From the IMG/VR virus record IMGVR_UViG_3300030376_005909, positions 1 through 28,943 of that record: DNA of 28,943 bases; one strand, written 5' to 3'. The notes below the pieces were generated by a model. It searched no databases. It was not told where the DNA came from and was given only the letters and a program-made list of their open reading frames with translations. Source of the DNA: a virus (Duplodnaviria; Caudoviricetes). Positions 1-28,627 of this stretch are shown piece by piece. A program made the translations under genes and the position numbers. Each line of letters begins with the position of its first letter. Positions within the stretch are counted from its first letter, which is position 1.

Positions 1-402
1 ACCACCAAAGCCTTGTGATTCTAAATATTGTTGTTTAGCCATCTTTCTTTGATTAATTACTTCACTGTTAATAGCGGAATGCAATACTTTTTGAATGTCT
101 AATTCAATATTTTCTTGAGTGATTCTTTCATATTCTCTTAAACAATCTGTATTTACAGTTAGATTACCTGAACTATCAGTAGTAAAAGAAAGTTTAGCGA
201 GCATCTGACTAATTACTCTTTCAGTAACATCTTCCATCATTTGTTCGAGAGCAGTTAAAAATTGCTCACCATGATACTGAAAAAATTCTTCTACATGATT
301 TTCCTGCAAAGAAAGTAGATTATTCACATTTTTAAATGTAGTATCATTCTGGGCATTTACAGCCCCCATTAAAGCCCCATTACTTGTTCCAAATACTCCC
401 AT
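1..402 (-). CDS. Hypothetical helical protein, 3'-truncated by the window edge
   Basis: Not in the ORF track. Translated by hand from ATG at 402, just after the upstream stop at 405: MGVFGTSNGALMGAVNAQNDTTFKNVNNLLSLQENHVEEFFQYHGEQFL...QRKMAKQQYLESQGFGG. Open for all 134 codons. Confidence 0.8.
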   Translation of the reverse strand, partial: MGVFGTSNGALMGAVNAQNDTTFKNVNNLLSLQENHVEEFFQYHGEQFLTALEQMMEDVTERVISQMLAKLSFTTDSSGNLTVNTDCLREYERITQENIELDIQKVLHSAINSEVINQRKMAKQQYLESQGFGG

Positions 403-404
403 AC

Positions 405-1076
405 TCATTTCTCCTTAATTGTTTCTTTTTCTTCTGGTAATTCATTAGTAGCCTTAACATTATGCTTTAACATTAAAAGATTCAGTCTTTCAGTTATTAT
501 GTTTATTTCAGCAACTAATCGAATAACCTCATCGGTGGCTGTCCTATTATCGGCTAGAGCAGGTGGCCGTATAAACCATCCGGCGGCAGTTAAAGAAGTA
601 ACATCATTCTTAGTTAAATTACTTATTGGCCCGCCTTTAAGCATTTTAGGCATTCTTGGCTTAAATGCTTTGAATTCTAATCCATGTTGCTCTGCTAATA
701 TTTGCTGTTGAAGCATTTCTAACTGAACATACATAGAAGCATGTTTAGGACAATATGTTCCCCTTAAAGGCCTACCTTTAACTACATCATCTAAAGGTAT
801 AGGTGGACGCATATAGTCTCCCTGTTCCCAAATATGATGAAATCCACACACTACACATCTATCTTTTAAATTAAATTTTTTACCAAATTTTAAAAACAAA
901 AAACTTTTTCTCTCTGCTTTTAATACTGATTTAAGTTCTTTTAGTTTCTTTTTAGGTTTAATAGCAACAAACTGATATTCAGTAACTGTGCCACTTGCTC
1001 TTGCCTGTTGAAAGGGCTTTAAATATGGGTTAAAGTTCTGCCCTGTGGTCTGTCCTATTATTTGGTTATTATACAT
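405..1076 (-). CDS. Hypothetical protein with putative Zn-binding motifs
   Basis: 223 aa ORF in the operon, with CVVC-x2-HH and CPKH motifs and a C-terminal helical segment. Confidence 0.75.
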   Translation of the reverse strand: MYNNQIIGQTTGQNFNPYLKPFQQARASGTVTEYQFVAIKPKKKLKELKSVLKAERKSFLFLKFGKKFNLKDRCVVCGFHHIWEQGDYMRPPIPLDDVVKGRPLRGTYCPKHASMYVQLEMLQQQILAEQHGLEFKAFKPRMPKMLKGGPISNLTKNDVTSLTAAGWFIRPPALADNRTATDEVIRLVAEINIITERLNLLMLKHNVKATNELPEEKETIKEK

Positions 1077-1079
1077 TTT

Positions 1080-1427
1080 TCATTCCTCTCTTTTATTTAC
1101 TTCTCTAAATTTATTATTAAATTTGGGTCTTTCTTTATATTCATTAATTATATTAAACAAATGTTCATCAAAATCAAAATCTTCATCTTTTATTTGGTCT
1201 AAAGTAAGTGTGGCATAATATTCTTCAACTATTTCATCAAATGCGCTTTCTATTTCTTCATCAGGTATTTCAGGACTAAGCCATTCATGTTTCACTTCAT
1301 CAAAATTACCTATTGTCATTGATGCTGACGGAAATTTATTATGAATAAAATCTTCTTCATTATATGGAGAATTTTTAATATTATCTAAAATATCATCAAT
1401 ATCTCTTTTCAATATTTTTTTCCACAT
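1080..1427 (-). CDS. Small acidic hypothetical protein with N-terminal W-x-x-I-L-K tag
   Basis: The ORF track starts it at 1436. ATG at 1427 gives MWKKILKR, followed by a D/E-rich body. Confidence 0.7.
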   Translation of the reverse strand: MWKKILKRDIDDILDNIKNSPYNEEDFIHNKFPSASMTIGNFDEVKHEWLSPEIPDEEIESAFDEIVEEYYATLTLDQIKDEDFDFDEHLFNIINEYKERPKFNNKFREVNKREE

Positions 1428-1432
1428 TTTAA

Positions 1433-2101
1433 TCAATAATCCTTTATCATTGTAGTGATTCCTTTATACACCATTTCTGGGTCTGACTTTGCCGATACTA
1501 TATATTTAAAACAAGGAATTCCTTTTTCATTTAATTGTCTCATTCCGTATTTAAATGGTTCAAAAATCTCATGTTTATCAATAGGCTGCCCCTCTATCAA
1601 AGGATATTTTTCTCCCCATATATCATATTTATTAGCCCATATTGCTATTGCTATTGGATAGTCCGAATCTCTTTTTTTTTTATTAGAAGGCCATGTGGAA
1701 GAAACTACTGTATCTACTATAAATTTCCATGCTAATTGGTGGTCTAAATTTGAAGGCGAATCTAAGTGCCTATGGTCTATCATAAAAATAATATATTTAA
1801 CTTTGCGAAGTTGCATATCCTTAACCCATTCTTTCCAATAAATTGCCTCTCCTCCAATATCAGCACTACGAATAGTATGTGAATCACCATCTATTTTAAT
1901 ACCTTTCCTAGAAGCCCTATGTCTTCCTACAGTCCTTTCATTAATTTGAGCCACTTCGCCCCTTGTTTTTAGTTGCTGACTCAAAGTAGTTTTACCCACC
2001 ATAGTAGAACCATAAACTCCAAAATTGATAGCATGAACTTTTCTATAAAAACCAATTACGGCTTCACCTAATAAAATAGCAAATCCTGTCATAACGGACA
2101 T
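1433..2101 (-). CDS. Ras-superfamily-like small GTPase (Arf/Rab-like) with hydrophobic N-terminal helix
   Basis: G1 GSTMVGKTT, G2 Thr (ERTVG), G3 DIGG(E) with a downstream Trp (YWKEW), IIFMID strand, G4 NKYD, G5 SAK. N-terminus MSVMTGFAILLGEAVIGFY. Confidence 0.85.
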   Translation of the reverse strand: MSVMTGFAILLGEAVIGFYRKVHAINFGVYGSTMVGKTTLSQQLKTRGEVAQINERTVGRHRASRKGIKIDGDSHTIRSADIGGEAIYWKEWVKDMQLRKVKYIIFMIDHRHLDSPSNLDHQLAWKFIVDTVVSSTWPSNKKKRDSDYPIAIAIWANKYDIWGEKYPLIEGQPIDKHEIFEPFKYGMRQLNEKGIPCFKYIVSAKSDPEMVYKGITTMIKDY

Positions 2102-2102
2102 A

Positions 2103-2321
2103 TCAATGTCCCCAACTATCCCAGAATTTATCTATTACCCATCCCATAATATTAATGTCAAAAACACCCATAATATTTCCTATAAGTAATGCTGATAATA
2201 CAGCACAAGAACCCCAAAACCACATTCTCATTTTAACAAAAAACATATCAGCAGAATGAGCCCTTTGTGAATTGTAAGCATAATCAGAATCGCTAAATCC
2301 CATTATATCGCCCAATACCAC
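2103..2321 (-). CDS. Small membrane protein
   Basis: 72 aa, GTG start after GAGGTGGG, hydrophobic segment WFWGSCAVLSALLIGNIMGVF. Confidence 0.75.
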   Translation of the reverse strand: MVLGDIMGFSDSDYAYNSQRAHSADMFFVKMRMWFWGSCAVLSALLIGNIMGVFDINIMGWVIDKFWDSWGH

Positions 2322-2331
2322 TTAACCCACC

Positions 2332-2721
2332 TCATTGAAGTGCTGCTAAAAATTCATTTCCTATGGTATTCTCTTCTTCTGACTGAACAGGTTGGTAATT
2401 ATTAAAAGAAGTATTATGTTGTTTAGCACTTTCTCGCATCTTTTGTCTTTGTTGTTCATCTATGGCTTTTCGTTCCCAATAGGCTGTAATTTTTCTATCG
2501 AGGAGCCACATTTCTATTTTATCATTAAGAGCCAAATCAAATAGGGCTTTCATGACCATAATAGAACCAATGGTTCCTAGCCCGAATAAAACTGAATGTG
2601 CTAAAGACCCATAAGGAAAGGTAAGACCAAACTGTGCATAAACAAATACATTAGTTCCGCTCATTACACCGACAAATAAAATTGTCATAACTAGTCTAGT
2701 ATCTTGGCTTAGTGCTGGCAT
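2332..2721 (-). CDS. Membrane protein (2 predicted TM helices plus a soluble helical tail)
   Basis: Likely start is ATG 2721 (MPALSQD) after GAGGCTGA. Hydrophobic segments LVMTILFVGVMSGTNVFVYA and LAHSVLFGLGTIGSIMVM. Confidence 0.75.
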   Translation of the reverse strand: MPALSQDTRLVMTILFVGVMSGTNVFVYAQFGLTFPYGSLAHSVLFGLGTIGSIMVMKALFDLALNDKIEMWLLDRKITAYWERKAIDEQQRQKMRESAKQHNTSFNNYQPVQSEEENTIGNEFLAALQ

Positions 2722-2732
2722 ATTTATCAGCC

Positions 2733-3008
2733 TCAAGCAAATTCAACGGTAACGTCTAAGTGATTAGGAACAATTGCACAAATTCCATTAGTGCAAATTA
2801 CCCCATGCATATCAAACTCTAAACTTGTTCCTGCTGGGACTCTTAGTCTTGCGACTATTTTTCCAGAAGCAGCAGTATTATCATAAATAGTTGCTTCTAA
2901 TGCGCCACCAGTATCATTAGCACCACGCACCGATACAAGTTTTGAATTTCCTGTAACGACTACTTTGGTTTCATTTGTTATCAAACCACTACTTCTACAA
3001 CTTGCCAT
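2733..3008 (-). CDS. Small beta-rich protein, probable virion structural protein
   Basis: 91 aa, G/A/T/V-rich with a beta-strand pattern (ATIYDNTAASG), located downstream of the capsid gene. Function is inferred. Confidence 0.65.
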   Translation of the reverse strand: MASCRSSGLITNETKVVVTGNSKLVSVRGANDTGGALEATIYDNTAASGKIVARLRVPAGTSLEFDMHGVICTNGICAIVPNHLDVTVEFA

Positions 3009-3066: not shown

Positions 3067-3390
3067 TTATTCTTTTAATGCTGATTTCTTAGCCTTAGAC
3101 ATAATTTTTTTCGTCTTTGGCTTAGATGGTAGCAATAATGCACACAATTCATCATGGGTAGTAATAGTAGAACCTAATGATTTTGATAGTCTTTTAAATC
3201 CAGAAGGGTCTAATTGACGTAATTCTTCTCTATCTGATTCTACAAAAGTTATTTCTAAGTTTGAATCACCTAAATACTTAAAGCAAAATGAAGGAGGTAA
3301 ATCCTCAAGGACTTGTCCTCTTGTTAGAACAAGTCCCTGAAGACTTACTTTCATTGACCTTGCTTGCTTAGTCAATTTAATTGTTGCCAA
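3067..3390 (-). CDS. Hypothetical protein downstream of the capsid genes
   Basis: 107 aa, TTG start 5 nt after the GGTGA RBS (3396-3400), Lys-rich tail. Confidence 0.7.
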   Translation of the reverse strand: MATIKLTKQARSMKVSLQGLVLTRGQVLEDLPPSFCFKYLGDSNLEITFVESDREELRQLDPSGFKRLSKSLGSTITTHDELCALLLPSKPKTKKIMSKAKKSALKE

Positions 3391-3764: not shown

Positions 3765-5114
3765 TCAGAGTAAGTTGGTAATCTTTCCTTGACCCTTGAA
3801 GTAAGAACAGCCCATTTCCGCCATAGTTCGGTAAAGAGCCTTGTTTCCAAGAGAACCGACGCCGAATGGGTTTCCGTTACTGATACCATCTTCAAAGTAT
3901 TGAGTAGGCTTCATAACTGATAGCCAAATGTGGTCTGTATCGACAAACAACATATCACTAATACAAGCAGAGTTAGCCCCAGTTGAAGGCATAGCAGCAA
4001 CTGGAATTAGAGGTATATCGTAGTAGGTAGAAACTCTAAATCCTACTTCTGCACCCTTAACGCCACGAACACCGTTTACTGTTGGGACAATTTCCTTTCT
4101 GTCCATAAAGCGTTCTTGGGCTTGCAATAGGTCAGAAAGAGTTTGTAGTGTATCATATCCAGTTAGAATAACCTTTGGTGAACCACCAGCAACTCTCAAA
4201 TCTCTAATCATATTGTTTATTACAGTTAGAGTCATTTGACGTGCTTCTGCACTAGTATAACCTGCACCGAAACTTACTTGAGCATCAAGGAATGAACCAC
4301 TATCACGGTTTGAACCGTAAATGTGACTAATACTAGCATCAGTAGCAGCATCAACTAAGTTTCCACCAGAGTTATCAGCCAATTCAACTATCTCAGCGGT
4401 TGAAGTAATAATCTTGTATAGAGAAGTATATGCTCTATCCATACCAGTAGTTACAGTAGTATATGCGGTTGTTGGAGAATAGTTTTCCAAAGGCATAACA
4501 AGCATTTGGTTCTGAACCTCAGCATGATGCTTACCCATATCTTCTCTCAATTGTGCTCTAATATCACCGATACCATCATCAATTTGAGCCATTTCCATTG
4601 CCAACTCACTGAAAGCGAATTGATGAGCAACGATTTTAGGGCTTGTATGTAGTGTTGTGTAAGTTGGTGCAAGTGGCATCAATCCATCATTAACAGTATC
4701 TAATGAAGCATTTTCTGGAACTCCACCAATAAAGTCTGCTCTTAGTGAATCTTCTCCTAATTGAGAAGCATCAAGTGTAGCGTTAGAAGCAGCAGTAATA
4801 TCCAAAGAATTACCAGAGCCACCAGCAGGACGGTTACTTAGAACTCTCCAACCACTAGAAGTGTATGGTCTCTTAGCAATTACTGAAAGAGCATTACATT
4901 CTCGGTTTAGCATAGACCAAACTTTTTGTCCATATAGTTGATTGTAAAGGTTAGCATTAATACCAGAAGGTGCTCCTTGTGCTCCATCGTGGGCTGTGTG
5001 AATACCAGACAATGTTCCCTGTGCCTTAAGCAATTGATTACCAAATGCACCTGTATGGCTAATTCCGTATGTTTCTGCTTCTAAATCTGCGATTGTGTTA
5101 ATATATCCTGTCAT
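3765..5114 (-). CDS. Major capsid protein (HK97-like fold)
   Basis: 449 aa directly after the prohead protease. HK97-like pattern (GGVPEN..., PKIVAHQFAFSELA, YYDIPLIP, C-terminal GKITNL). Confidence 0.85.
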   Translation of the reverse strand: MTGYINTIADLEAETYGISHTGAFGNQLLKAQGTLSGIHTAHDGAQGAPSGINANLYNQLYGQKVWSMLNRECNALSVIAKRPYTSSGWRVLSNRPAGGSGNSLDITAASNATLDASQLGEDSLRADFIGGVPENASLDTVNDGLMPLAPTYTTLHTSPKIVAHQFAFSELAMEMAQIDDGIGDIRAQLREDMGKHHAEVQNQMLVMPLENYSPTTAYTTVTTGMDRAYTSLYKIITSTAEIVELADNSGGNLVDAATDASISHIYGSNRDSGSFLDAQVSFGAGYTSAEARQMTLTVINNMIRDLRVAGGSPKVILTGYDTLQTLSDLLQAQERFMDRKEIVPTVNGVRGVKGAEVGFRVSTYYDIPLIPVAAMPSTGANSACISDMLFVDTDHIWLSVMKPTQYFEDGISNGNPFGVGSLGNKALYRTMAEMGCSYFKGQGKITNLL

Positions 5115-6349: not shown

Positions 6350-8839
6350 TTAATTAGGAAAGGGTAATTTATTATATTTATCAGCATAAATGTTCCATTT
6401 CCCTTCATCTGTTTCGGTATCAGCAGGTTCTTGTTTATAGCCAGTCCATGCTAACCACATTTCTGTTCCTTTAACTTCAATTACTCTAAAGTGCATTTTA
6501 GTTTCAAATTTATTACCTTCTAAAAAATATTCATGGTAGCCATCTTTTTGGACTCCTAATTTAATTTTGCCGGAATCAATAACCTTACCTCTTTCAATAT
6601 TCTTTGCTACTTCTGCTGGATATTTACCAGCCGCACCAAATAAATCAAATAGTTCCTTTTCATCATCTAATTCAATTGTCCAAAACATAGTTTCTTTTTC
6701 TAATTTAATTGCTAAAGTAACATTATCATCTTCTCTAGAATACAATTTAAATTGTCCTTCTTGTAATTTTTCAGGAGTCTTATATTCCTTTAAAATTTCT
6801 TCTTCTTGCATAATTTTATCTTCATCTGCAACCAATTTATTTTCTCGTATAGAAATACCATCTCTTAATCCAGCCCATTGTTTTAAATCAGTTTCTTTAG
6901 ATTCTAAAATGTCTTCATATAATGATGGGTGATTTTTTACTAAATGAAGATGCACTTCTTTAATAATTGATGGCCCTTTTAATTTTAAGAATTGAAAAAT
7001 AGCCACAGTTAATTCGCTTTGTTTGGATTTCATAATATCAATAGCCTGTTGCTTCCACATATCTAAATCCATTAAAGCGTTTTTAGACATTAAATTATTT
7101 TGCTCGAAGCCATAAATAGTAAATCCATTCATATCAGACTTAATAATTAAATTAGTTTCACCGTGAATATAATCAGTAATTTTAATACCTTTAGTTAAGG
7201 CCTCAACATCATAATTTAAAGATTTTTTAGTATCTTTAGAAAGTAATTCTAGAGTAACTAATTTATCAGGGTAATTTACTTCAGGCACTTCTATTACTTT
7301 AGCAGAATATAAACTATAGGAATCTCCTTGCTTTTTGACCTCATCTACTTTGACTCTAATAATATCCCCTATATCAACAGACACTTTAGTATTGAGGGCT
7401 TTACCCACATTCATATAATTATCTCCTTTAATCTCAACTAAGTTATTTAAGTCTTCAGTGATTGGCCCTACACCTAAACCATAGGAATATAATCCGCTTT
7501 TGGTTTTCCTTTTAGTTAAAACCATAACATCTAAATCGACGAACTTTTTCCACTTAATCCACTTAGGGTTCTTTTTAGTGCCTACATAATAAGTAGAAGT
7601 AGCATCTTTTATTACTACACCTTCAGCAGTAGGAATTTCCATCATTTCCTTAGCATATTTCTCAATATCTTTTAAATTATCTGCTTCTCTAGTATCTTTT
7701 TTAGAAGGGAAGGCAATTGCATCATTAGATTTAGAAGAATAATTATTAAATAAAGTAATCATTCTTGCACTTAATTCTTCATCAGCCATAGTCTGTGCTT
7801 CGTGTCGTATAATATCGAAAACATGACATCTTAAATTAGCGTCTTGGTATTTATTCTTAAAAACATGAGCCACAGTATCTGCTCTATGTAATGCTTCTTC
7901 TCCTTTGAATAGAATCAATTCACCATCAAAAATACAATCACCGTATTCTTTCTTTTTAAGTTCTTTAACTTGTTCTGGACATTTATCAGTAATGTCTTTT
8001 TCATTATAAGAATAAATAGTAACTTTATCATCTAATTTATGTAATTGAATTCTCATACCATCATACTTTTCTTGAACATACCAATTACCACTAAATCCTT
8101 TTAACTCTTTAATGTCTTCAATATCAAATATTCTATACATTGGTTTATTAGGAATAATAAAATGAGAAACAGATTTCTTTTCATCAGACTTTTCAATCTC
8201 TGTTAATTCGACCCATTCTTCTTCTTCATGTTTAGAAAAGAAAATTAACTCTAATACATCCATAGCAGCAGTTACTTTGGATTCAACCTTCTTTGAGTCT
8301 TTTCCATCCCCATAATGCTCAATAATATAGAGAGCAATATCCTCTGACTCTAGGTCAAGACCTTCAAGACCCTCTGTTATTGTGTCAGGTTCCATGCCCT
8401 TAATGCTTAGAACTTCAGGTGAAAGAACTTTATTGTCTTCTCTTAGCGCATAATGCACGAATTTAACCATGCTTTCAGGATTAGATAGCAATTCTTCTAA
8501 GACATTTCCCTTAAACATTTTAGAAAAAGGGTCTTCTACCAATTTTGAAGAATATCTAATTAGTTTAATTTTTTCAAATAAATTAGTAGCACTAGGGCTA
8601 GTAGGGTCTTTGGTTTCCTTTTCCATTAAGTCATCTTCATCAATGTAATTATTCAGTTCTTTACCTGCTGAATCTAATTTGTTATAGGAGTCAATTATTA
8701 AATCAACTGTTTTACGCCAACGGCCCCCGTATTCTTTAGGGTCTGTTTTAGCAGAAAGATAGGCAACCCTAGTTTTTTCAAATAGTCTAAGTATTTCTTG
8801 AGAAGGTTGCTTATCCTTCTCAATAGAGCCGAGTTTCAT
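6350..8839 (-). CDS. lig: ATP-dependent DNA ligase with long N- and C-terminal extensions
   Basis: Motif I QEKYDGMR, III IFDGEL, IIIa VFDII, IV EGVVIK, V WIKWK, followed by an OB-fold-like region. Confidence 0.88.
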   Translation of the reverse strand: MKLGSIEKDKQPSQEILRLFEKTRVAYLSAKTDPKEYGGRWRKTVDLIIDSYNKLDSAGKELNNYIDEDDLMEKETKDPTSPSATNLFEKIKLIRYSSKLVEDPFSKMFKGNVLEELLSNPESMVKFVHYALREDNKVLSPEVLSIKGMEPDTITEGLEGLDLESEDIALYIIEHYGDGKDSKKVESKVTAAMDVLELIFFSKHEEEEWVELTEIEKSDEKKSVSHFIIPNKPMYRIFDIEDIKELKGFSGNWYVQEKYDGMRIQLHKLDDKVTIYSYNEKDITDKCPEQVKELKKKEYGDCIFDGELILFKGEEALHRADTVAHVFKNKYQDANLRCHVFDIIRHEAQTMADEELSARMITLFNNYSSKSNDAIAFPSKKDTREADNLKDIEKYAKEMMEIPTAEGVVIKDATSTYYVGTKKNPKWIKWKKFVDLDVMVLTKRKTKSGLYSYGLGVGPITEDLNNLVEIKGDNYMNVGKALNTKVSVDIGDIIRVKVDEVKKQGDSYSLYSAKVIEVPEVNYPDKLVTLELLSKDTKKSLNYDVEALTKGIKITDYIHGETNLIIKSDMNGFTIYGFEQNNLMSKNALMDLDMWKQQAIDIMKSKQSELTVAIFQFLKLKGPSIIKEVHLHLVKNHPSLYEDILESKETDLKQWAGLRDGISIRENKLVADEDKIMQEEEILKEYKTPEKLQEGQFKLYSREDDNVTLAIKLEKETMFWTIELDDEKELFDLFGAAGKYPAEVAKNIERGKVIDSGKIKLGVQKDGYHEYFLEGNKFETKMHFRVIEVKGTEMWLAWTGYKQEPADTETDEGKWNIYADKYNKLPFPN

Positions 8840-11948: not shown

Positions 11949-12260
11949 TTAAAATTTTGGTTTTTTCAATTTAATTATCCCTTGTGTCTTAACTAATATT
12001 TCTATTAATTCTTTATGAGTTAATTCATTTAATTTTTCTTCAAAAGCATCCATCAATTGATTGTGAGTTGAAGCAGCCAGCATATCTTCATATTCTTTAT
12101 TTGTCTCAACATCATCAAGGCTGTCTTCTTCAATATCTTTAGGTTCTCTTAAAGAAGTTCTTTTATTTTGTTTTTTATCATCAGACCTATCAAACCCTAC
12201 TACCTTAGTAGGAACCTTTCTTCTCATAGGCTGTCCTTTAATTATATTTTCCCAGTTCAT
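11949..12260 (-). CDS. Small hypothetical protein with N-terminal W-x-x-I-I-K tag
   Basis: ATG 12260 after AGGTGA gives MNWENIIKG. Confidence 0.7.
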   Translation of the reverse strand: MNWENIIKGQPMRRKVPTKVVGFDRSDDKKQNKRTSLREPKDIEEDSLDDVETNKEYEDMLAASTHNQLMDAFEEKLNELTHKELIEILVKTQGIIKLKKPKF

Positions 12261-12280
12261 TTTAGTCACCTTAATTTCTC

Positions 12281-13973: not shown

Positions 13974-14855
13974 CTATGCTTCAGTTATAGAACCTTCGGG
14001 AAATGATGCATTTACCCTTTCTAAACTTCTAACAAAGCGACTTACATGAGTCATTTTCTTGAGATTAATTCCTGTTTCGTAGTCATTATCATGCGCCCAA
14101 CTAACAAGTTGGTTAGTAGAAAGGTTGCTGCCACTAGTAGGAATAAAAGGGCAGCCCCCAAGCCCATTGATACTAGAATCAAAAGAAGTAACTCCTAAGT
14201 CTAAAGAAGACTTAACATTATTTAGTATATTGTTACCTCCTATTTTCTTCTCATGAAAGTGCATCGCTATTTTAGAATCAATATTCCGAGTTAATTCTAA
14301 GGCTTTGGCTATTTTTGTAGGGTAAGCACTACCTATAGTATCGCAGAGAACAACCGTTTCAGCAATATCACTGGCCTTAGTGATGGCATCTTTCAATTCA
14401 TGTTCAGCAGGTAGCCCTTCAAAGGGACAACCAAATGCACAAGAAACATAGGCTCTAACATCTTCTCTATTAGTATCACTTAACATTGTCTTTATATTAT
14501 CATATACTTCATCTAATTTTTTTCCTAAGTTTCTAATATTAAATTCATTAGAAGGAGAAAAAAATACATTTAGTTTTTTAGCACCCACCTTTTTAGCCCT
14601 ATCAAATCCTTTTTGGTTAGGAATAAGGACTCCTAAGTTTCCTAGTTCTTTAGTCTGAGAAAAAACTTCTTCTGCGTCTGCTAGATTGGGAACCCTTTTA
14701 GGATGAACAAATGAAGTCGCCTCTATGTTCTTAAAACCCGCATAATAAAGTTCTTCAATCATAGTTATTTTATCAGAAGTAGATACTTTAAATTTACTAT
14801 TTTGTAAGCCATCTCTAGGCCCAACTTCATATATGTTTAAATCCATCCTCACCAC
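13974..14855 (-). CDS. hmgL: Hydroxymethylglutaryl-CoA lyase (DRE-TIM metallolyase)
   Basis: IYEVGPRDGLQN, IEATSFVHPKRVP, YVSCAFGCPFEG, LCDTIG, HFH metal site and GLGGCPF with the catalytic Cys. The start may instead be ATG 14846. Confidence 0.88.
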   Translation of the reverse strand: MVRMDLNIYEVGPRDGLQNSKFKVSTSDKITMIEELYYAGFKNIEATSFVHPKRVPNLADAEEVFSQTKELGNLGVLIPNQKGFDRAKKVGAKKLNVFFSPSNEFNIRNLGKKLDEVYDNIKTMLSDTNREDVRAYVSCAFGCPFEGLPAEHELKDAITKASDIAETVVLCDTIGSAYPTKIAKALELTRNIDSKIAMHFHEKKIGGNNILNNVKSSLDLGVTSFDSSINGLGGCPFIPTSGSNLSTNQLVSWAHDNDYETGINLKKMTHVSRFVRSLERVNASFPEGSITEA

Positions 14856-14861
14856 TTCACT

Positions 14862-15476
14862 TTAATTGAGCAACAACTTATCATATTCGTCTTTCCAACT
14901 TTTCTCATCAAGGTCTAACTCTTCCATTACACTCTCTTGAGTAATTGGCTTATTCATATGTTTGAACATTTGAATCACTTGTTTTATCTTAGGGGTTAAA
15001 TCAACATCTCCCCCACCACTATTTGCTTCTTGTGATAATAATCCTTTAACTTTCTTAAATTCTTCCATATTATACCCATGTGTTTTCATCACTGTAATGA
15101 AATACTGTAAATGTTTATTTAAATCTAGCCCATTAATATATTTTTTATCCCTTTCATAACCGTCAAAATCAATCACATATTTTAGTTTTTTCGCCTCATT
15201 AATAATTTCTTGTGGATTATGTGGGTCAAAATTAGTAATCATGCTTCCGCTGGCAGCGATTTCATCAAATTTATATTTTGACACCAATAAACCCAAGGCG
15301 GAGACCGGAGGCGAAGCATCCCAATCTTTTCCCTCTAATCTATTTTTAACAATTAAAGCAAATAAATCTACTGCCGCTTGTTCGCTTTTCACATTTACAT
15401 ATAACCAAGGTTGACCCCCTGAATCCCCTTTTAATATTTCCAAACTTTCCAATTTTAATATCTCAAACCAACCCAT
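14862..15476 (-). CDS. Hypothetical protein with N-terminal W-x-x-I-L-K tag
   Basis: MGWFEILKLESLEILKG (doubled EILK), with a small HTH-like C-terminal segment. Confidence 0.75.
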   Translation of the reverse strand: MGWFEILKLESLEILKGDSGGQPWLYVNVKSEQAAVDLFALIVKNRLEGKDWDASPPVSALGLLVSKYKFDEIAASGSMITNFDPHNPQEIINEAKKLKYVIDFDGYERDKKYINGLDLNKHLQYFITVMKTHGYNMEEFKKVKGLLSQEANSGGGDVDLTPKIKQVIQMFKHMNKPITQESVMEELDLDEKSWKDEYDKLLLN

Positions 15477-15482: not shown

Positions 15483-17093
15483 TCACACCATATCATAATC
15501 ACTTTTAGGATTTAACCAATCTCTTTTTTTCCCATCAGCAGTAATCTCATACCAAATAAAACCGCTAAACTCTCCAAGTTTATCTCCTAACCAATCTCGC
15601 AAGTTATCCTCAATGTCTTCATAAGAGGCATCTATTTCTAGTCCTAACTCCTTAGCCGTTTCCATCATATTAAGTTCAATATCTTCCATCGGTTCATCTT
15701 CTGTTGAATAAGACTCAATTACAAAAGTCCTTTCTTGTTGTTTAAGAATACTTTCATGGCTTTCTAAACTATCCATAGTAGACATTTTACAATTGGCTTG
15801 TAACTTAGCAATATCAGTTAAATAAATATCTTCTTTGAGCCAATCGTAACCTACGTGGTCTTTGTGATTTTCCCATTTCATTAACTTAAAAATTTCATCG
15901 CATCTAGACTTATACCAATCTGTTTTCTTATATCCTTTTTTCATTCGGATAAGTTCTAGAAGTAGTTTAGCATTGCCTTTCTTTAATCTAAAATGAGGCA
16001 AGCACTTAGTCAACAAGTCGGTGACATCATCTTGTGAATAAAAGTTTAATCTTTGAATAAGCCTTGTCTGTTGAGGAGATTTTTGGTCTAGATGCATTCG
16101 CCCATACCCTATTGACTTATGCATTTCTTCCATGAAAGCCTTACCTCTCGAACCTGTTGCAATTAAACCTACTCTTGGATTCATATTACGGTCTAAAGTA
16201 ATATAACCATCAGAGTCAATAAAAGCAGCAGTATAAGCCCAAATATTTTTCTTAATCATAGACGGCATCTTATAATAAGAACCATTAGATGAAACAATAT
16301 CTAATTTTTTAATTGCTTTAGCAATTGTATTTGGGCTACTTATTTTAAATAAAGGAGTAGGCATTATTTCGTGAATGTTCTGTGCAGTAATTCCGGGTTG
16401 TTCACAAACAGATTTAAGAATAAAATCTTCTTGTCTTTGCTTTTTAGTTTTAGTAATAGACTGGTTAGTAATTTTAGAAATAGCATTTCTAAAATCTTTT
16501 TTAGCCAATCTCATTTCTTTAGCAAGTTCACTATACTCTTTACTATAAGCCATGCCTTCTTGTTTTTGTTCGGCTTCCCAATACTTACATAGAGAATCGA
16601 CAGTCTCTCTTCTTAACTCAAGGCTTTTCATTTTATTAAGTTTAGATAAGTCTTTTTCATTATATCTCATTTTAGATAGAGGAACAGTATAATCACTTAG
16701 CCAAGTAATAGAACCAATGCACTTTTGTAAATGGTCTGCATAGGCATCAATCATTGTATCAATAGCCTTTGCCATTTTAATTCTTTGTTCCCCTTTTAAT
16801 GCTCTGCGGGATTTTCTCATCTTTCTAATCAAATCAGGAATAGAATGTTCTTCAACAAGATATTGGTCAGGAAAAACACTTAACTGTTTTCTAGCCTCAG
16901 TAGAATTTATATTTAATGTAGATGCTAATTTAGTTATTTCTTCATGCTCTGACATTACATGAGAGACACTTTTTAACTCCGTATCTAATTGAGTTTCTAT
17001 ACTATCTTTAGTTTCTTCCTCTTCTTCATCTAATTCAGCCAAACGATTCATTTGTTGAGCCGCCTCTCGATATTTATCTGCTTGCTCTGTCAC
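15483..17093 (-). CDS. Multi-domain protein: helical N-terminus + winged-HTH-like segment + single LAGLIDADG endonuclease domain + acidic tail
   Basis: IWAYTAAFIDSDGYI motif with downstream LTKCLPHFRLKK. Upstream ILKSVCEQPGITAQNIH...SPNTIAKAI. GTG start after GAGGTGG. Confidence 0.75.
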   Translation of the reverse strand: MTEQADKYREAAQQMNRLAELDEEEEETKDSIETQLDTELKSVSHVMSEHEEITKLASTLNINSTEARKQLSVFPDQYLVEEHSIPDLIRKMRKSRRALKGEQRIKMAKAIDTMIDAYADHLQKCIGSITWLSDYTVPLSKMRYNEKDLSKLNKMKSLELRRETVDSLCKYWEAEQKQEGMAYSKEYSELAKEMRLAKKDFRNAISKITNQSITKTKKQRQEDFILKSVCEQPGITAQNIHEIMPTPLFKISSPNTIAKAIKKLDIVSSNGSYYKMPSMIKKNIWAYTAAFIDSDGYITLDRNMNPRVGLIATGSRGKAFMEEMHKSIGYGRMHLDQKSPQQTRLIQRLNFYSQDDVTDLLTKCLPHFRLKKGNAKLLLELIRMKKGYKKTDWYKSRCDEIFKLMKWENHKDHVGYDWLKEDIYLTDIAKLQANCKMSTMDSLESHESILKQQERTFVIESYSTEDEPMEDIELNMMETAKELGLEIDASYEDIEDNLRDWLGDKLGEFSGFIWYEITADGKKRDWLNPKSDYDMV

Positions 17094-21750: not shown

Positions 21751-24045
21751 TTATTCACCTACTCTTAGAAGTCCATATTTTTCTACAAATTGCTTTTTAG
21801 CATTTATTATTTGATTGGGAGGGAAATTATAGGGTTTAGTTGCGAACTCTTCTAGTTTTATTCTAAATGCACCAACAGTTTCTTTTTTCATTTTATCTAT
21901 CAATGAAGGCATATTATCGTCTAATTGCCCCGCTACTTTAATTGCATTGTCTGAATCGGGGTCTTTGTCTATTGTCTTAAATGCTTCCCTTACTTCGCCA
22001 TTAGAAGTCAAATCAGCCATCTGAGAAAAGAAACTTAAACTTCTTTCAGGAGTAATTTGGTCTAATGCTGCTGCTGAATTCTCTATCTTTTCAACTAATT
22101 TAGTAAGGCCACCTTCATCTTTTAATTTTTTAGCCATACTTAGAACATACTTAGCAAAGGTGCTGCTATCAAGAAGCCCCTGCCTTAAAGATTGAGTCTT
22201 CTCTCCAATGTCTTTAGGACTTATTCCTGACTCCATTCTTTCTTTTATTTCATTAATTAATCTTTCAAGTTTCTCAACTCTTTTAGTGCCTATTTCTTTT
22301 CCTTCTTTGGGCAAGGTCGCAAGTTTCTTTTTTGCTGCTATAAGTTCTTTTTCTTTGGTTTCAAGTTCTTTCTGTCCTCTTTCTTTACGCCCCGATGCTT
22401 CAGGAGTAGTTACTTTTAATTTTCGTCCGGTGTTCTCGTCTTGCCATTTATAAGCAGATTCAGGAGTTAATCCATCACCATCAAGAGTTACTTTAGCATA
22501 GTTAGCCCTTTCTTTTCCTTTATCGTAACGAGTAATAATTGAACCTTTTTCATCTCTTTTTACATTACCTTCACTATCTATGTCATTTATAGTTTCTCCA
22601 GTTGGAAAACCATCTCTAAAATATTCTATTTCTAGTTCATCTTCAGGATATTCTTCTTTGTCTAATTGAGAATAAAATTCTTCAAAGTCTGCCGCTTCTT
22701 TAATAGTGAAATTCCCTTTTAAATATTGCAATTGACCGGCTTGTAGTTCATCTTTAGCCCTTGACAACTGGTTTCCTAAATTATAATTAGTATCAATAAT
22801 TTCAATAATTTTAGACTTAACTGAACTATCAGATGAAGTTCTAAAATCACCCATGATATTATTAATAATGTTTTTCATAGAATCAATTTGACCTTCTCTA
22901 AAATAGTCACTTTTCTCGCCGGTTTTCATAGAAACATAAATATCATTAATAATTTTTGTTTGGGCGTCTTTATTACTTAGCATTTGGGTCTTTCTTAGAG
23001 TATCAAAGAAGGTTTTGAACCAAGTTTCTCCGCCATAATCTCCTAGTAGAATTAATTCACTATAAGGATTCAAATTCATAGAATTAGGGCTACTTTTTTC
23101 CAAGAAAAGAACCTTAGCAGTATCAGCAGTATTAGGATATTTCTTTGGCCTAAAGGCTCTTACACTTCCTGTAATATTATCAACTGCTTTTATGTATTTT
23201 ATTACAGAACTCTCATCAAAAGGCTCAACAACTGATAATTTAATGTTTGAAGCAATAAATAATTTTCCTTGAGCAACTAAATCATCCGCATCAATAACAT
23301 TTCCTCCAGCATGTAACTTCCATTTAGAATTTTTTAGGTTTTTATTGTAAAATTCTTTAATTTCTTTCTTTTCTGCTACTATTTCAGGTGTATCTAAAAT
23401 TGCCCCAGTTTTTTTATCTATTTTAGGGTTTAATGCTTGAATAAAATCATTTTCGGAAGTATAATCTACTAAAATTATGTCTCCTTTGGCCTCTCCGCCA
23501 ATTAATTTGGCAAATTGCCCTATGAGTTTGGAATTTTCAGGTAGACCTTCAAAGGAAAGGTAAGGTTTGTCTGCTTTTAGCCGCAAAATCTCTAATTTAG
23601 TTCTTAAATCTTTATTTGTTCTAAGTGTTCTCTCACTTAAATGACCTTTTTCATCAATTTCTTGTAAAATTTCCTCAACTAACTGATTATTTCCTTTAGT
23701 TTTGGCTTCAAGCCCTTCTTCTACTTTTGCTTTCACATCAGCCGTAGTCATAAAAGTTAAAGCGTCTTTAAGTTTAGTAATATTTTCTTCAATTTGACTT
23801 AATTCTAAATCAGCAACAGGACTATTTGAGTAAGGAGCAATAATATCTTCTAATGGAGGATTGCCTCCTTCAATACTTATTAAAAGACCCTTTAAATAAT
23901 TGAATTTTTTCTTAATTTTATCGTCAGTTAAGTCTGCTTCTTCAATTCTTTTAATGAGTCTCGCTGTGCTTGCTGCATTGACTATAGTAATAGCAAAAAA
24001 ACTCTTCTCTTGAGGAATAGCCTTCAATACAGTTTGCCAAAGCAC
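21751..24045 (-). CDS. Large hypothetical protein with N-terminal W-x-x-V-L-K tag
   Basis: 764 aa, GTG start overlapping the upstream TAG, begins MLWQTVLKA. Confidence 0.75.
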   Translation of the reverse strand: MLWQTVLKAIPQEKSFFAITIVNAASTARLIKRIEEADLTDDKIKKKFNYLKGLLISIEGGNPPLEDIIAPYSNSPVADLELSQIEENITKLKDALTFMTTADVKAKVEEGLEAKTKGNNQLVEEILQEIDEKGHLSERTLRTNKDLRTKLEILRLKADKPYLSFEGLPENSKLIGQFAKLIGGEAKGDIILVDYTSENDFIQALNPKIDKKTGAILDTPEIVAEKKEIKEFYNKNLKNSKWKLHAGGNVIDADDLVAQGKLFIASNIKLSVVEPFDESSVIKYIKAVDNITGSVRAFRPKKYPNTADTAKVLFLEKSSPNSMNLNPYSELILLGDYGGETWFKTFFDTLRKTQMLSNKDAQTKIINDIYVSMKTGEKSDYFREGQIDSMKNIINNIMGDFRTSSDSSVKSKIIEIIDTNYNLGNQLSRAKDELQAGQLQYLKGNFTIKEAADFEEFYSQLDKEEYPEDELEIEYFRDGFPTGETINDIDSEGNVKRDEKGSIITRYDKGKERANYAKVTLDGDGLTPESAYKWQDENTGRKLKVTTPEASGRKERGQKELETKEKELIAAKKKLATLPKEGKEIGTKRVEKLERLINEIKERMESGISPKDIGEKTQSLRQGLLDSSTFAKYVLSMAKKLKDEGGLTKLVEKIENSAAALDQITPERSLSFFSQMADLTSNGEVREAFKTIDKDPDSDNAIKVAGQLDDNMPSLIDKMKKETVGAFRIKLEEFATKPYNFPPNQIINAKKQFVEKYGLLRVGE

Positions 24046-24311
24046 TAAGATTCCACCTTTAAAATAGTTAAAATTATCTTGAACATACCTATTCTTTGCT
24101 TTTCTGTGGCTGACATGCCTGACTCTAGTAATGTTTTAATCGTTTCTTTAGCATCAGAATTAGATAAAGAATTAAATTTATTCTTTAAAGATTTAAGACC
24201 ATCAGGAATAGGTGTGTCCTTCCACCTTTCATAATCAAATTCTCCTAATAGGACTTCGCTGAGTGCTTTCCACTCTTCCTTTTCTGTTTTAAGAATACTT
24301 TGCCAACTCAT
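24045..24311 (-). CDS. Cassette gene 5, tagged small protein
   Basis: 88 aa, MSWQSILKT, start codon inside repeat 24303-24331. Confidence 0.75.
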   Translation of the reverse strand: MSWQSILKTEKEEWKALSEVLLGEFDYERWKDTPIPDGLKSLKNKFNSLSNSDAKETIKTLLESGMSATEKQRIGMFKIILTILKVES

Positions 24312-24328: not shown

Positions 24329-24733
24329 TTACCTATACTGTTCCCATGATTCTATTTCCTTAATAGCCTCTGCTATTGAATTAACCTCGTCGCCCATTTC
24401 ATTACTATCCTCGTTTTGAGGATAATATCTATATAGTATCTTGTCGGCCATATTGTTTACTTTAGTTTCATTATTGACATGCCTTTCAATTTCTGCTTGC
24501 ACTTGCTCAGGGCTTTTATTTTTCCAAGTTGTGTCAAAATCAACATATTCATCATCATTTTGGTATTCGTCTAAATCTCGAACAATAACATCTCCGTTAC
24601 TAACAATACCAACATCAATAACAACTTTTATGGAGTCATCTGTTGTTCTATCTCCAAACCCATAAGGGAAATACTCTCCATCGCTACCATAGGTTTCACT
24701 CCTATAATTTTTTAATATTTCTTTCCAACTCAT
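24329..24733 (-). CDS. Cassette gene 4, acidic tagged protein (paralog of 25110-25493)
   Basis: 134 aa, MSWKEILKN, contains DGEYFPYGFG. Confidence 0.78.
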   Translation of the reverse strand: MSWKEILKNYRSETYGSDGEYFPYGFGDRTTDDSIKVVIDVGIVSNGDVIVRDLDEYQNDDEYVDFDTTWKNKSPEQVQAEIERHVNNETKVNNMADKILYRYYPQNEDSNEMGDEVNSIAEAIKEIESWEQYR

Positions 24734-24750: not shown

Positions 24751-25104
24751 TTACAAATCAAATATACTCGGTTGGTTAGGGTCTATATTCGGTCTTTGTT
24801 TAGGTTTCTTTAGACGAGACAATGGCTCTTTTCTTTTTCTTTTAAGAGAAGGTTGTTCATTAAAGAATTTTTCAAAAGCAACAATATCTAAAAATCTCTC
24901 ATAGTTGTTTTCATCTAAATCTTCGGGTTTAATCTCCCCGAAGTTTGTAAGGTCGGCTAATTCATGAGACTGTTCATAAATAATAGCCTTTCCACTTTCT
25001 TGGCCCACTCTTTTATTGCTCATATTTTTAATTTCTTCTTTTCTTTTGTCAATATCCTGTCTAACCTTTTCGGAATATCCTTTCAATATATCTTGCCAAC
25101 TCAT
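24751..25104 (-). CDS. Cassette gene 3, tagged small protein
   Basis: Start ATG 25104 inside the repeat gives MSWQDILKG. Confidence 0.75.
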   Translation of the reverse strand: MSWQDILKGYSEKVRQDIDKRKEEIKNMSNKRVGQESGKAIIYEQSHELADLTNFGEIKPEDLDENNYERFLDIVAFEKFFNEQPSLKRKRKEPLSRLKKPKQRPNIDPNQPSIFDL

Positions 25105-25109
25105 TGTAA

Positions 25110-25493
25110 TCACTTCCATTCTTTTACTGCTGAAATTGCTTGTTGTAATGTATATTCTTGGTGGCCTGAACCAAGACTATCTTCACCATCTTGATATGGT
25201 TGAAATACTACGGTAACAATGTCAAATTTATCCCACATAGATTCTATCTCATCTTTAACTTCTTGTTCAATTGACTCAATAGGTTTTCCAGTATTCCAGT
25301 TACCTTTCCAATTTTTACTTCCCGCCCCATCCATAACCTCAAACATTTGGCCGTTTGCGTAAACCCCAACATATCTTGTTATTTCTTCTTCATCATCATC
25401 ATCGCTATTTCCAAAGTATTGAGGGAAATAGTGTCCATCACCGGCATAATATTCAGAAGGTGCATCATATTTAATTATATCTTTCCAACTCAT
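25110..25493 (-). CDS. Cassette gene 2, acidic tagged protein (paralog of 24329-24733)
   Basis: 127 aa, MSWKDIIKY, contains DGHYFPQYFG. Confidence 0.78.
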   Translation of the reverse strand: MSWKDIIKYDAPSEYYAGDGHYFPQYFGNSDDDDEEEITRYVGVYANGQMFEVMDGAGSKNWKGNWNTGKPIESIEQEVKDEIESMWDKFDIVTVVFQPYQDGEDSLGSGHQEYTLQQAISAVKEWK

Positions 25494-26411: not shown

Positions 26412-27539
26412 TTAATTCCGCCATAGTAGGTGTTGCCACATTTTACTAATCACTTTATTGTCGGGACTAGTGGCGTCCTTTCCATATTTTTCTCTACGAG
26501 TCTTTCGGTAATCAAATCCTCTCTTGGTTTTATTTTGCCAAGCCCTATACTGATTAGGTGCTTTGATAGTGTTCTTTCTTTTTAATGCTCTATTAGTTAA
26601 AGTAATAATAGGAGTAGCAGTAGTCATTAATTTAAAAGTAGTTACTCTTCCAGCAAGCCCTTCCTTTTCTTTTATACTACCTAAGTTGGCTAATTCTCTA
26701 ATCATGGCTTGGTCTTTATTGCTCAAGTTAAAAGAAGTAGACTGTAATTCTCTTCTAACTTTATCCACTAATAGTTTTCCACCAGAATTCCAATAAGTTT
26801 CTTCTCTGACTACTTTGTTAAAGAAGTCTTCAATGGCACTAAGTTCATCAATATCTGCTGCATCTGTTCCGCTAGGTAAAGTGTCAATTTCAACTTCTAT
26901 TTCCGCATCATCTATGTCTTCTGCTGCTTCTTGCATAATATATAACAGGCCTTTAGGTTTAGAATACGGGCCACTTGAGTATGAAAATAATGCTTCATGA
27001 GGAGGATTGTTGCCTGTCATCCATTCATCAGGAACCTTTGATACTCCTTCATGTCTTTTAGCATACCATTCAGTAGCGTAATGCCCTTGAACTGTTCTAG
27101 GTGCAAGTTTTTCTCCCGTTGGAGTTTTGTCTTGTTCAGTAAATAGAATAAAAGCAGGGTCAAAAGCGGGGGTTGTTCCGCCAGCATCTTTACCAGTCTT
27201 TTCCATAGCCTTTAATGCTTTAGCGTATTCAGCAATAAATTCTGCTTGAACATTAGTAAATAATTCAGGCCCATCTACCATGTCTTCAATAACCTCTAAA
27301 AATTGAATTGCACCTTGACCATCTAAACCCTGATTCCTACTATTTTCTCTAATGTTATCTTGCATATGGTTTTTCAACATAGTGTATAAATCAGGAATGT
27401 TTTTTACTTTTAAATCGCCACCGCTAACTCCTTCACAGTTAGTTCTCCAAGTATTAAAATCATCAATAAAATTACTTTTTACTTCTTGTTTAACTCTATT
27501 ACCTTTATAGGGAACATAGTTTTTCTTTTCATCTGGCAT
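26412..27539 (-). CDS. Hypothetical protein
   Basis: About 375 aa, start 27539 or 27548 (GGAGG RBS), basic C-terminus ending ISKMWQHLLWRN. Confidence 0.75.
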   Translation of the reverse strand: MPDEKKNYVPYKGNRVKQEVKSNFIDDFNTWRTNCEGVSGGDLKVKNIPDLYTMLKNHMQDNIRENSRNQGLDGQGAIQFLEVIEDMVDGPELFTNVQAEFIAEYAKALKAMEKTGKDAGGTTPAFDPAFILFTEQDKTPTGEKLAPRTVQGHYATEWYAKRHEGVSKVPDEWMTGNNPPHEALFSYSSGPYSKPKGLLYIMQEAAEDIDDAEIEVEIDTLPSGTDAADIDELSAIEDFFNKVVREETYWNSGGKLLVDKVRRELQSTSFNLSNKDQAMIRELANLGSIKEKEGLAGRVTTFKLMTTATPIITLTNRALKRKNTIKAPNQYRAWQNKTKRGFDYRKTRREKYGKDATSPDNKVISKMWQHLLWRN

Positions 27540-28353
27540 CTTCTTCATCCTCCTTTTTACCTGAATACTTTACATTGAATAGGGCGGGGGCCGAAGAAGT
27601 GCTTACTGCCCCAGTTATTTTTTCTAAGTCACTACCTTTAACCTTTTCGAGTGCTTCTTGAATCATATCATAAAGAGCATCAAATTCTTTAGCACCATAT
27701 CTATTTTTCATTTCTTCTATATCATTAAAATTAATTTCTGAAATTTCAGGCTTTCCTGCTTGTCTAGCAGTAATTTCTAATCTAGCCAGTTTCTCTTTAA
27801 TTTCACCTGTTAGTTTATCATCGCTAAGTCCTCTAGTAATACCATCGACAAAAGCAATAATAGTTTCAACCATCTCAGTAGTTCTAGGAGTATGCATACC
27901 CTTAACCCCTAATATATTTGTCAGTGAAGGAGGAAAATAACTAGTTCTTGCTTGAGGGTGCATTAAAAAAGTTTTTAGTCTTAAGTATGTGCTTTCTGGA
28001 AATTGCCCTACAAATGCTCCATATTCTTCTTGGGCAGAAGTCATAGAAAATTGTTCTTCAGCCATACCAGCATGAGTCCCTTCATGCATAATAATCCTAA
28101 TAATAAAATCAGAAATGTCTTTATCTGTAGGTTCCCTTTCTAATTTATCTTTTAAATAATCATAAGAGAGGGCAGGATTGATTCTAATAGATTCATGCAT
28201 AGCATCTTTAAATGTCAAATTCTTACCACTAAATAATATATTAAATACTTCATCCAGTTCTAATTTTTTTGATTCTCCCATATACATACCAAATGCCTCA
28301 ATAGCATTATCAAAGTCAATGTCTTCTACTTTAATAATGTCAAACCATTTCAT
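27529..28353 (-). CDS. Putative zincin-like metallopeptidase with N-terminal W-x-x-I-I-K tag
   Basis: IIMHEGTHAGM (HExxH) with a downstream EEYGA. Start ATG 28353 after AGGTGA gives MKWFDIIKV. Confidence 0.6.
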   Translation of the reverse strand: MKWFDIIKVEDIDFDNAIEAFGMYMGESKKLELDEVFNILFSGKNLTFKDAMHESIRINPALSYDYLKDKLEREPTDKDISDFIIRIIMHEGTHAGMAEEQFSMTSAQEEYGAFVGQFPESTYLRLKTFLMHPQARTSYFPPSLTNILGVKGMHTPRTTEMVETIIAFVDGITRGLSDDKLTGEIKEKLARLEITARQAGKPEISEINFNDIEEMKNRYGAKEFDALYDMIQEALEKVKGSDLEKITGAVSTSSAPALFNVKYSGKKEDEEDAR

Positions 28354-28357
28354 AATC

Positions 28358-28627
28358 TCACCTTCTAGATTTATTGCCATGACACTTCCACTTTTTACGG
28401 CTTAAGTTGTTAGGGCTGTTTGGGTCTTTACGCCAATCACCTTTGATATTATTTGACCTTGCACAGTAAGCATCTCCCTTAGAAGTTCCCGGCCTGATTC
28501 TATCTTTACCATCTTTGGCTTTACCTGCTTGGCCATATTTGACAGTTTTTTTTCTTCCTGTTTTTTTATTAGTAACTACTTTCTTAAAGCGCCTTTTAAA
28601 TTTTAAGACTTCTTTCCATTCGCTCAT
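28358..28627 (-). CDS. Small, highly basic protein with N-terminal W-x-x-V-L-K tag
   Basis: 89 aa, MSEWKEVLKF. The KTVKYGQ...AYCARS...SPNNLSRKKWKC pattern resembles small basic proteins I recall from marine viruses. Confidence 0.75.
   Translation of the reverse strand: MSEWKEVLKFKRRFKKVVTNKKTGRKKTVKYGQAGKAKDGKDRIRPGTSKGDAYCARSNNIKGDWRKDPNSPNNLSRKKWKCHGNKSRR

Follow-up and report, generated by a model that had tools for sequence, protein, structure and literature searches.

A conserved five-gene block with an Arf-leaning small GTPase in magroviruses of Marine Group II archaea, and its possible role in breaching the host membrane

The five-gene block

The stretch of DNA analyzed here (the window, which is the whole of positions 1 to 28,943 of IMG/VR virus record IMGVR_UViG_3300030376_005909, 28,943 nucleotides) comes from a magrovirus, i.e. 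a tailed virus of Marine Group II archaea, close to the Aoguangviridae, because its small GTPase shares 72% identity with gp088 (Poseidoniales virus YSH_150918), a protein named "hypothetical protein" at NCBI. The YSH_150918 genome was reportedly annotated by Zhou et al. in 2023 (Environ Microbiol). The window is part of a late gene cluster that lies entirely on the minus strand, and its first 2,721 nucleotides hold a block (or cassette) of five genes in the order M1-M2-GTPase-B-A, of which B encodes a predicted zinc (Zn) protein and A a Gln/Gly protein. An earlier sequence-only reading had described the GTPase as tightly coupled to two upstream membrane proteins, which agrees with the predicted transmembrane (TM) helices of M2 and M1 and the gaps of 1 and 10 nucleotides that separate these genes; the full series of gaps at the junctions of the block is 11, 10, 1, 5, 3 and -4 nucleotides. 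The CxxC/CxxH protein and the helical protein that it placed after the GTPase are both real, but an acidic gene that it missed intervenes.

2332..2721, minus strand: M1, 129 amino acids, shaped like a holin, with two predicted TM helices and a C-terminal tail that is helical and charged (hydropathy, alignment)
2103..2321, minus strand: M2, 72 amino acids, one predicted TM helix with an invariant RAHSAD motif ahead of it (hydropathy)
1433..2101, minus strand: Ras-superfamily small GTPase, 222 amino acids, Arf-leaning (motifs, model, profiles)
1080-1427, minus strand: variable inserted acidic gene between the GTPase and B, 115 amino acids from its ATG, leader MWKKILK
405..1076, minus strand: B, 223 amino acids, CxxC and GTYCxxH, predicted Zn site (alignment)
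1..408, minus strand: A, the N-terminal 136 amino acids of a helical protein of ~220 amino acids, truncated by the window edge

The block is a real, strongly conserved and undescribed five-gene system without a known counterpart. No paper linking magroviruses with a GTPase or describing the block was found, Zhou et al. 2023 being outside this coverage. The word "GTP" is absent from the main texts of PMC5434244, PMC10160649, PMC11706807 and PMC5332604 and from the supplements of PMC5434244, PMC10160649 and PMC11706807 as far as these were covered, the annotation tables of the last probably lying outside.

Conservation and relocation of the block

Of 159 viral loci examined (some contigs twice), 110 had enough flanking sequence, 40 had short flanks and nine lacked the GTPase. 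The order M1-M2-GTPase-B-A was found in 110/110 of the sufficiently flanked loci, down to ~55% GTPase identity, and the 40 short-flank loci were consistent with it. Sampling that was independent of the GTPase, by a scan for a capsid motif (120 loci, 80 with flanks analyzed), found the block after the capsid genes in all sufficiently long contigs whose capsid has 54% identity or more; the post-capsid site is without it in two groups whose capsids are 43-51% and 33-38% identical. In the 33-38% group (the distant lineage) the GTPase is present at another site (E~1e-36), the block lying directly before the small terminase gene, where M1-M2-GTPase-B-A and a third membrane gene occur in 86/89 loci. 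Alignment of the two lineages by HHalign gave probabilities of 100% for the GTPase, 96.5% for B and 86.6% for A, while M1 and M2 share position, topology and short motifs, with sequence matches (E 0.036 and 0.051) short of significance. The block has moved as a unit between positions. Loss of the neighbors in related genomes, which would have refuted the earlier reading, was not seen: they are conserved with the GTPase in two deep lineages. In two relatives, the five block proteins are 71-85% identical to those of the window, versus 36-49% for two adjacent head-region proteins, and pN is well below pS. No homolog of any cassette gene was found near the capsid genes of either halovirus HCTV-1 or methanogen virus vir335. 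Shares in RNA runs were only small; the contigs of four runs covered the capsid gene for the most part and otherwise dispersed fragments, and are uninformative on expression or timing.

The third membrane gene of the distant lineage encodes two TM helices and the motif ksv.vDMiMVQl, and lies after A and before the small terminase gene (L415:8651-8908, L415:9173-9874). One genome of that lineage has, upstream of the cassette, a 322-amino acid Gly/Ala-rich protein with a hydrophobic N-terminal stretch (L418:4704-5672), the composition of which is like that of an ejection or pore-forming protein.

Sequence motifs, fold and relationships of the GTPase

The five G motifs noticed earlier in the GTPase are all present (GSTMVGKT(T), T57, DIGGE, NKYD, SAK), as are the hydrophobic N-terminal helix and a Trp after G3 (Trp89/Trp92).

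2036..2101, minus strand: N-terminal helix, residues 1-22, predicted membrane anchor, no Gly2 (helix 3-22 in the model)
1988..2011, minus strand: G1 P-loop GSTMVGKT(T), residues 31-38 (G31, G36, K37 and T38 invariant in 42/42 family members)
1931..1936, minus strand: Arg56-Thr57 of switch I (G2), invariant in 42/42, in both lineages
1847..1861, minus strand: G3 DIGGE, residues 81-85, last position variable (E/Q/D/H)
1622..1633, minus strand: G4 NKYD, residues 157-160 (N157, K158 and D160 invariant in 42/42)
1487..1495, minus strand: G5 SAK, residues 203-205 (ATxIG in the distant lineage)

These motifs agree with all five patterns that define the Ras superfamily (GxxxxGK[ST], G2 Thr, DxxG, [NT]KxD and SA[KL]; PMC4316618), the residues of G1 to G4 being invariant in 42/42 and G5 departing in the distant lineage. 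Helix moments over 42 sequences divide the N-terminal helix into a hydrophobic first half (0.18/0.06) and an amphipathic/basic second half (0.44/0.32). With the AlphaFold model of the GTPase (a single model, pLDDT 78, with low confidence in the switch regions), Foldseek ranked Rab33 (E 1.6e-8), G-alpha and Ras (E~1e-8) first, and among viral models (BFVD) the fold matches were giant-virus Rab/Ras proteins, 11-21% identical. The family TIGR00231 (small_GTP) matches 42/42 members below its cut-off; because of this uniformity and the Foldseek values of E~1e-8, the assignment as a GTPase is not due to chance. A search of the PDB with the single sequence found nothing significant; a profile of both lineages matched best to 8OUN ("GTP-binding protein", E 1.9e-4), followed by a signal recognition particle (SRP) receptor protein and Rab33B. 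After viral clusters, the nearest proteins in the ESM Atlas are bacterial and partly annotated as PF00025 (Arf), a family that matches 4/42 members (best E 7.4e-4), and several members bear the automatic Joint Genome Institute (JGI) label "GTPase SAR1 family protein". There was no tblastn match to the GTPase in 50,697 phage records, a set from which near records may be missing, and no fused longer form among 7,999 candidates, which is weak evidence. A pattern scan of GTDB, which reaches close relatives only and so leaves room for a host copy, found one match, on a 12.2-kb contig of a Maricaulis bin (NZMJ01000024.1, L081); this contig shares its length and match coordinates with viral locus L041 and appears to be magrovirus sequence misbinned into Maricaulis.

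The name "Arf/Rab-like" given in the sequence-only reading stands as far as the Ras superfamily and a leaning towards Arf, but the family lacks Gly2 and three of five Arf residues. The Arf signature examined was wDvGGQxxxRxxW plus Tyr81, with residue numbers checked against five giant-virus Arfs. Like the Arf family (Arf/Arl/Sar1, SRP receptor beta and Asgard ArfR), the block GTPase has a helix N-terminal to the G domain, GKTT, D[IV]GG and a Trp at the position of Trp78; D[IVLM][GA]G and this last Trp are kept in 42/42. Unlike Arf, it has in 42/42 replaced the Trp before the Asp of DxxG (by Ala/Ser), Arg75 (by Trp) and Tyr81 (by Asp), and Gly2 is found in 0/42 members versus 5/5 giant-virus Arfs, although this myristoylation site is missing also from Sar1 and Asgard ArfR. 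Its N-terminal extension is ~25 residues and more hydrophobic than amphipathic, that of Arf ~18 residues; it is encoded by a virus, with dedicated partners, and Foldseek puts Rab33, G-alpha and Ras first. Because DxGG and Trp78 are kept but the other Trp, Arg75, Tyr81 and Gly2 are missing, these sequences point to a new family of the Ras superfamily with a leaning towards Arf rather than to an Arf proper, membership of which is only partly supported. A nucleotide-driven interswitch toggle that releases the N-terminal helix is a criterion of the Arf family (bioRxiv 10.1101/2024.02.28.582541). Giant-virus Rab, Ras and Arf proteins are likewise virus-encoded switches of the Ras superfamily, but they are of eukaryote type and belong to viruses of eukaryotes, whereas the block GTPase is a family of its own in a tailed archaeal virus. 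Canonical eukaryote-type Arf genes were seen in a motif scan on apparent giant-virus contigs (L123:1929-2495, L154:2885-3424, L179, L190, L201).

The sequence-only reading had singled out the switch II Glu as a distinguishing feature. It does not serve as one: among 58 distinct sequences of the window lineage the residue is E in 48 and Q in 10, and in the distant lineage (n=76) it is Q in 50, E in 11, D in seven and H in one, with no match in seven. The Glu was rejected as a defining catalytic change, and a catalytic Gln after DxxG is not a constant of this family. In group-1 MglA, an intrinsic arginine finger lies next to the G2 Thr (PMC4316618). The block GTPase has an invariant Arg in the same place (R56-T57, 42/42), and by this analogy Arg56 is a candidate intrinsic arginine finger. 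Unlike MglA, which has TVPGQ at G3 and the roadblock GTPase-activating protein MglB, it has D[IVL]GG[EQDH], and no roadblock family was detected among the neighbors.

Among described archaeal systems, ArvA of haloarchaea is a small GTPase with a Zn-ribbon neighbor and, at its N terminus, an amphipathic helix; knockout of ArvA abolishes vesicles and its overexpression increases them (PMC10927574). The block GTPase resembles the OapA (ArvA)-ArvB-ArvC operon in being an archaeal small GTPase with an N-terminal helix and a (predicted) Zn-binding operon partner; ArvA acts on the membrane, and by analogy the block GTPase may do so. One supposition would be that the GTPase, like ArvA, promotes the budding of membrane vesicles in which virions or viral material exit an unlysed cell, and use of ArvA by archaeal viruses has been put forward as speculation in a review (PMC10791045). 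This seems quite unlikely to be the function of the block. The Arv operon is cellular and has three genes, the block is viral and has two or three TM proteins; ArvB/OapB (PF09846) has no match in the window but was found in the Haloferax and Methanosarcina controls; the genes downstream of the GTPase are the acidic insert and then B, which has no Pfam match; and tailed particles are the predicted form of the virions (PMC10768690).

The other proteins of the block

M1 is present in 78/80 close loci and matches no Pfam or PHROG family. By hydropathy and composition it has the shape described for holins (small, at least one TM helix, charged C-terminal tail; PMC10791045). The RAHSAD motif of M2 is found in 114/114 distinct sequences of the window lineage, and the positional counterparts of M2 in the distant lineage have R-[AS]-x-H in 63/74. 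A complex prediction for the GTPase with M1 and M2 (M2 as partner) scored 0.00 against a mark of 0.32, which carries no weight either way. The residues C74, C77, C109 and H112 of B are invariant in 33/33, and in its distant-lineage homolog CxxC is changed to CxxD(GC) while GTYCxxH is kept (GTYCPEH). B has no PDB fold match at E<=0.001; a profile match to a flavin oxidoreductase in the PDB (E 0.013) was judged to be chance.

The acidic insert has no homolog in 80 close loci, and at the same GTPase/B junction unrelated inserts with an MWxxILK-type leader occur in 17/77 loci; the insert is a passenger, outside the cassette.

A is 222 amino acids at full length in a 96% relative, and in relatives the rest of the protein has a Gln/Gly/Met linker, the motif GYPxPP..PYW and, at the C terminus, an amphipathic helix rich in Gly. 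A PDB profile match of A to colicin Ib (E 0.71) was judged to be chance. In the ESM Atlas its nearest named clusters are T7_gp14 (0.87, 16% of members) and P22_gp7 (0.85, 13%), both below the threshold of 0.9 for a lead. These clusters, the Gln/Gly/Met-rich composition and amphipathic tail of A, and the position of the block inside the structural operon would fit a function in which the block proteins travel inside the virion and are expelled on infection as a channel for DNA entry, like T7 gp14-16 or P22 gp7/16/20. Besides the low Atlas scores, this is opposed by the long-tail module that the virus encodes, with tail tube and tape-measure-like proteins (as read from the sequences), and by the five block proteins being without the M(x)WxxILK leader that begins nine other minus-strand open reading frames (ORFs) of the window (listed below). 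Integral membrane proteins are, moreover, unusual capsid cargo. An entry channel is the least likely of the alternatives considered here, only a slim prospect.

Viruses without the block and a possible role in egress

The group with capsids 43-51% identical has no GTPase, including four records rated 100% complete, in which unfiltered profile searches found no cassette gene except a 52-amino acid match to B (E 0.048). These genomes carry other small membrane genes, namely H1 (a coiled coil and a C-terminal TM helix), H2 (two TM helices and a coiled tail) and H3.

L661:5212-6084 (genome G041): H1/H2/H3 locus
L667:17718-18373 (genome G030): H1/H2/H3 locus
L677:6561-7481 (genome G031): H1/H2/H3 locus
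L672 and L675 (genome G039): H1/H2/H3 loci

In G030 and G031, two of the four complete cassette-less genomes, H1 and H2 sit together immediately behind the tail genes, which is the usual place for lysis genes; in G041, H1, H2 and H3 are all near the small terminase gene, and in G039 the H genes are apart. Among 40 long records (30 with the GTPase, 10 without), H2 is found in 10/10 without and 0/30 with it, and H1 in 8/10 without and 1/30 with it, weakly (E 0.002). The records that are at least 90% complete (n=24) comprise 19 with the GTPase and five with H2, with zero overlap. Weak matches of H1 and H2 to lysis families occur in single members (Phage_holin_1, E 0.011; PHROG hemolysin, E 0.009 and 0.012), and H1, H2 and H3 may be regarded as candidate holins in their own right. 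Homology between them and M1, M2 and M3 was rejected, all HHalign probabilities being below 2%. In a capsid tree of 37 rows, the cassette-less clade is sister to the window lineage with joint support of 95/100, the outgroup branches being long. The simplest history would be that an ancestral cassette was lost once, with H1 and H2 in its place; transfer between the two cassette lineages is possible instead.

The five-gene block may be a late device, controlled by a GTP switch, that breaches the membrane of the archaeal host for virion release and replaces a simple holin; we hold this at close to an even chance. The mutual exclusion with holin-shaped genes indirectly favors a role of this kind, since related viruses without the block carry small predicted holin-like genes. 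It is put first because a lytic tailed virus must cross the host membrane, because in one complete cassette genome no small membrane genes other than those of the cassette were convincing (a hydropathy scan of G045, by our own reading, gave no other convincing holin candidate), and because the cassette is absent exactly where the holin-shaped genes appear. The holins of archaeal tailed viruses are still elusive (review PMC10791045); PMC11706807 reports them only for the unrelated Adrikavirales. M1 and M2 are like phage holins and XhlA-type hemolysin holins in being small late-region proteins with one or two TM helices and, in shape, a charged C-terminal tail; they differ in that no adjacent endolysin was identified at the block. 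We know of no precedent for a holin coupled to a GTPase. More tentative is the fuller proposal of a virus-encoded, five-part membrane-remodeling machine for lysis or egress, timed by an Arf-leaning GTPase in a non-Asgard host, that is ancestral and was replaced once by holin-like genes.

Several points weigh against a membrane-breaching role. To our knowledge, no lysis system needs a GTPase. M1 and M2 match no known holin family, they are not detectably homologous to H1, H2 or H3, and even between the two cassette lineages their homology is not significant. The holin matches of the H proteins are below cut-off and occur in 1/10 H2 and 1/9 H1 members; the H1 and H2 profiles were built from the cassette-less lineage, and one record (G071) owes its selection to the presence of H2. 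In the capsid tree the cassette-less records are a single clade (90/95), so that the exclusion amounts to one evolutionary event, not 40, and the pattern could be unrelated gene turnover. The placement of A in the Atlas points, weakly, to the ejection proteins T7 gp14 and P22 gp7. Neither host nor virus is in culture (PMC10768690).

The cassette might instead reorganize the infected cell without lysis, through a membrane-attached assembly site or through altered host membrane traffic, defense or superinfection. The block has head-assembly genes around it (it separates head from neck genes in the window lineage and precedes the small terminase gene in the distant lineage) and is better conserved than some adjacent head-region proteins, and a switch with soluble partners would suit signaling or positioning, as in MglA; against this, the sister lineage, whose capsid and packaging genes are related, manages without the block, and the restriction of H2 to cassette-less records would be left unexplained. 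We consider such a reorganization unlikely, if worth keeping in mind.

For the membrane-breaching role, a mechanism can be proposed in which the parts are assigned from their shapes, and late expression from gene position. M1, with its charged tail and two TM helices, and M2, with RAHSAD and a single TM helix, would accumulate in the membrane, where the GTPase would be anchored through its hydrophobic N-terminal helix. Because the switch II Gln is not conserved, GTP turnover might proceed via the intrinsic Arg56; B and/or M2 might regulate the switch, and A would be the effector, contacting the bilayer through its C-terminal amphipathic helix.

Neighboring genes of the late cluster

The late cluster contains genes for a terminase, a portal protein, an HMG-CoA (3-hydroxy-3-methylglutaryl-coenzyme A)-lyase-like protein, a DNA ligase, a prohead protease and an HK97-type capsid protein. 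The block was said earlier to lie directly downstream of the capsid genes; it does follow them, but three small conserved genes lie between.

2733-3008, 3067-3390 and 3401-~3769, minus strand: three small conserved genes between the block and the major capsid gene
3765..5114, minus strand: HK97-type major capsid protein (phrog_24667; 24% identity to the halovirus HCTV-1 capsid)

The capsid protein is ~24% identical to those of haloviruses HCTV-1/HVTV-1, and in relatives the neck and tail genes, as read from the sequences, come after the block. An HMG-CoA-lyase-like gene (13974-14855; PF00682, E 2.5e-25) lies between the portal and terminase genes, and the ICTV profile of the Aoguangviridae also lists an HMG-CoA lyase (PMC10768690). 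A protein of 536 amino acids just downstream of the terminase large subunit (15483-17093) has a LAGLIDADG-like stretch, AFIDSDG (PHROG 5046, E 8e-6), possibly a homing-endonuclease domain fused to a head protein. An ATP-dependent DNA ligase of 829 amino acids with long extensions (6350-8839) is encoded within the head operon, immediately ahead of the prohead protease; a ligase within the structural module was reported earlier (PMC5434244). Short basic ORFs rich in Lys, Arg and Cys (28358-28941; e.g. with YCARS and CRKVGAANWG motifs), which recur near terminase genes in several magrovirus genomes, possibly encode DNA-binding internal proteins.

The leader M(x)WxxILK begins unrelated ORFs, 9/39 on the minus strand versus 0/46 control ORFs on the plus strand of the window; it was counted 12-23 times per genome in five relatives and once in the distant lineage.

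1080-1427, minus strand: leader-bearing ORF (the acidic insert)
11949-12269, minus strand: leader-bearing ORF
14862-15476, minus strand: leader-bearing ORF
24045-24311, minus strand: leader-bearing ORF
24329-24733, minus strand: leader-bearing ORF
24751-25119, minus strand: leader-bearing ORF
25110-25493, minus strand: leader-bearing ORF
27529-28380, minus strand: leader-bearing ORF
28358-28627, minus strand: leader-bearing ORF

The leader resembles the capsid-targeting sequence of the internal proteins of T4. ILK or LLK followed by a small residue is seen also close to the N termini of the protease and capsid proteins, and may be a cleavage site.

Implications

Magroviruses rank with the most abundant viruses of the sea (PMC10160649), and the egress of archaeal tailed viruses is an open question, for which the cassette and H1/H2 are two concrete candidate gene sets. 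If the proposed function is true, a membrane-anchored, Arf-leaning GTPase with partners of its own outside Asgard archaea and eukaryotes would bear on the origin of membrane remodeling by small GTPases.

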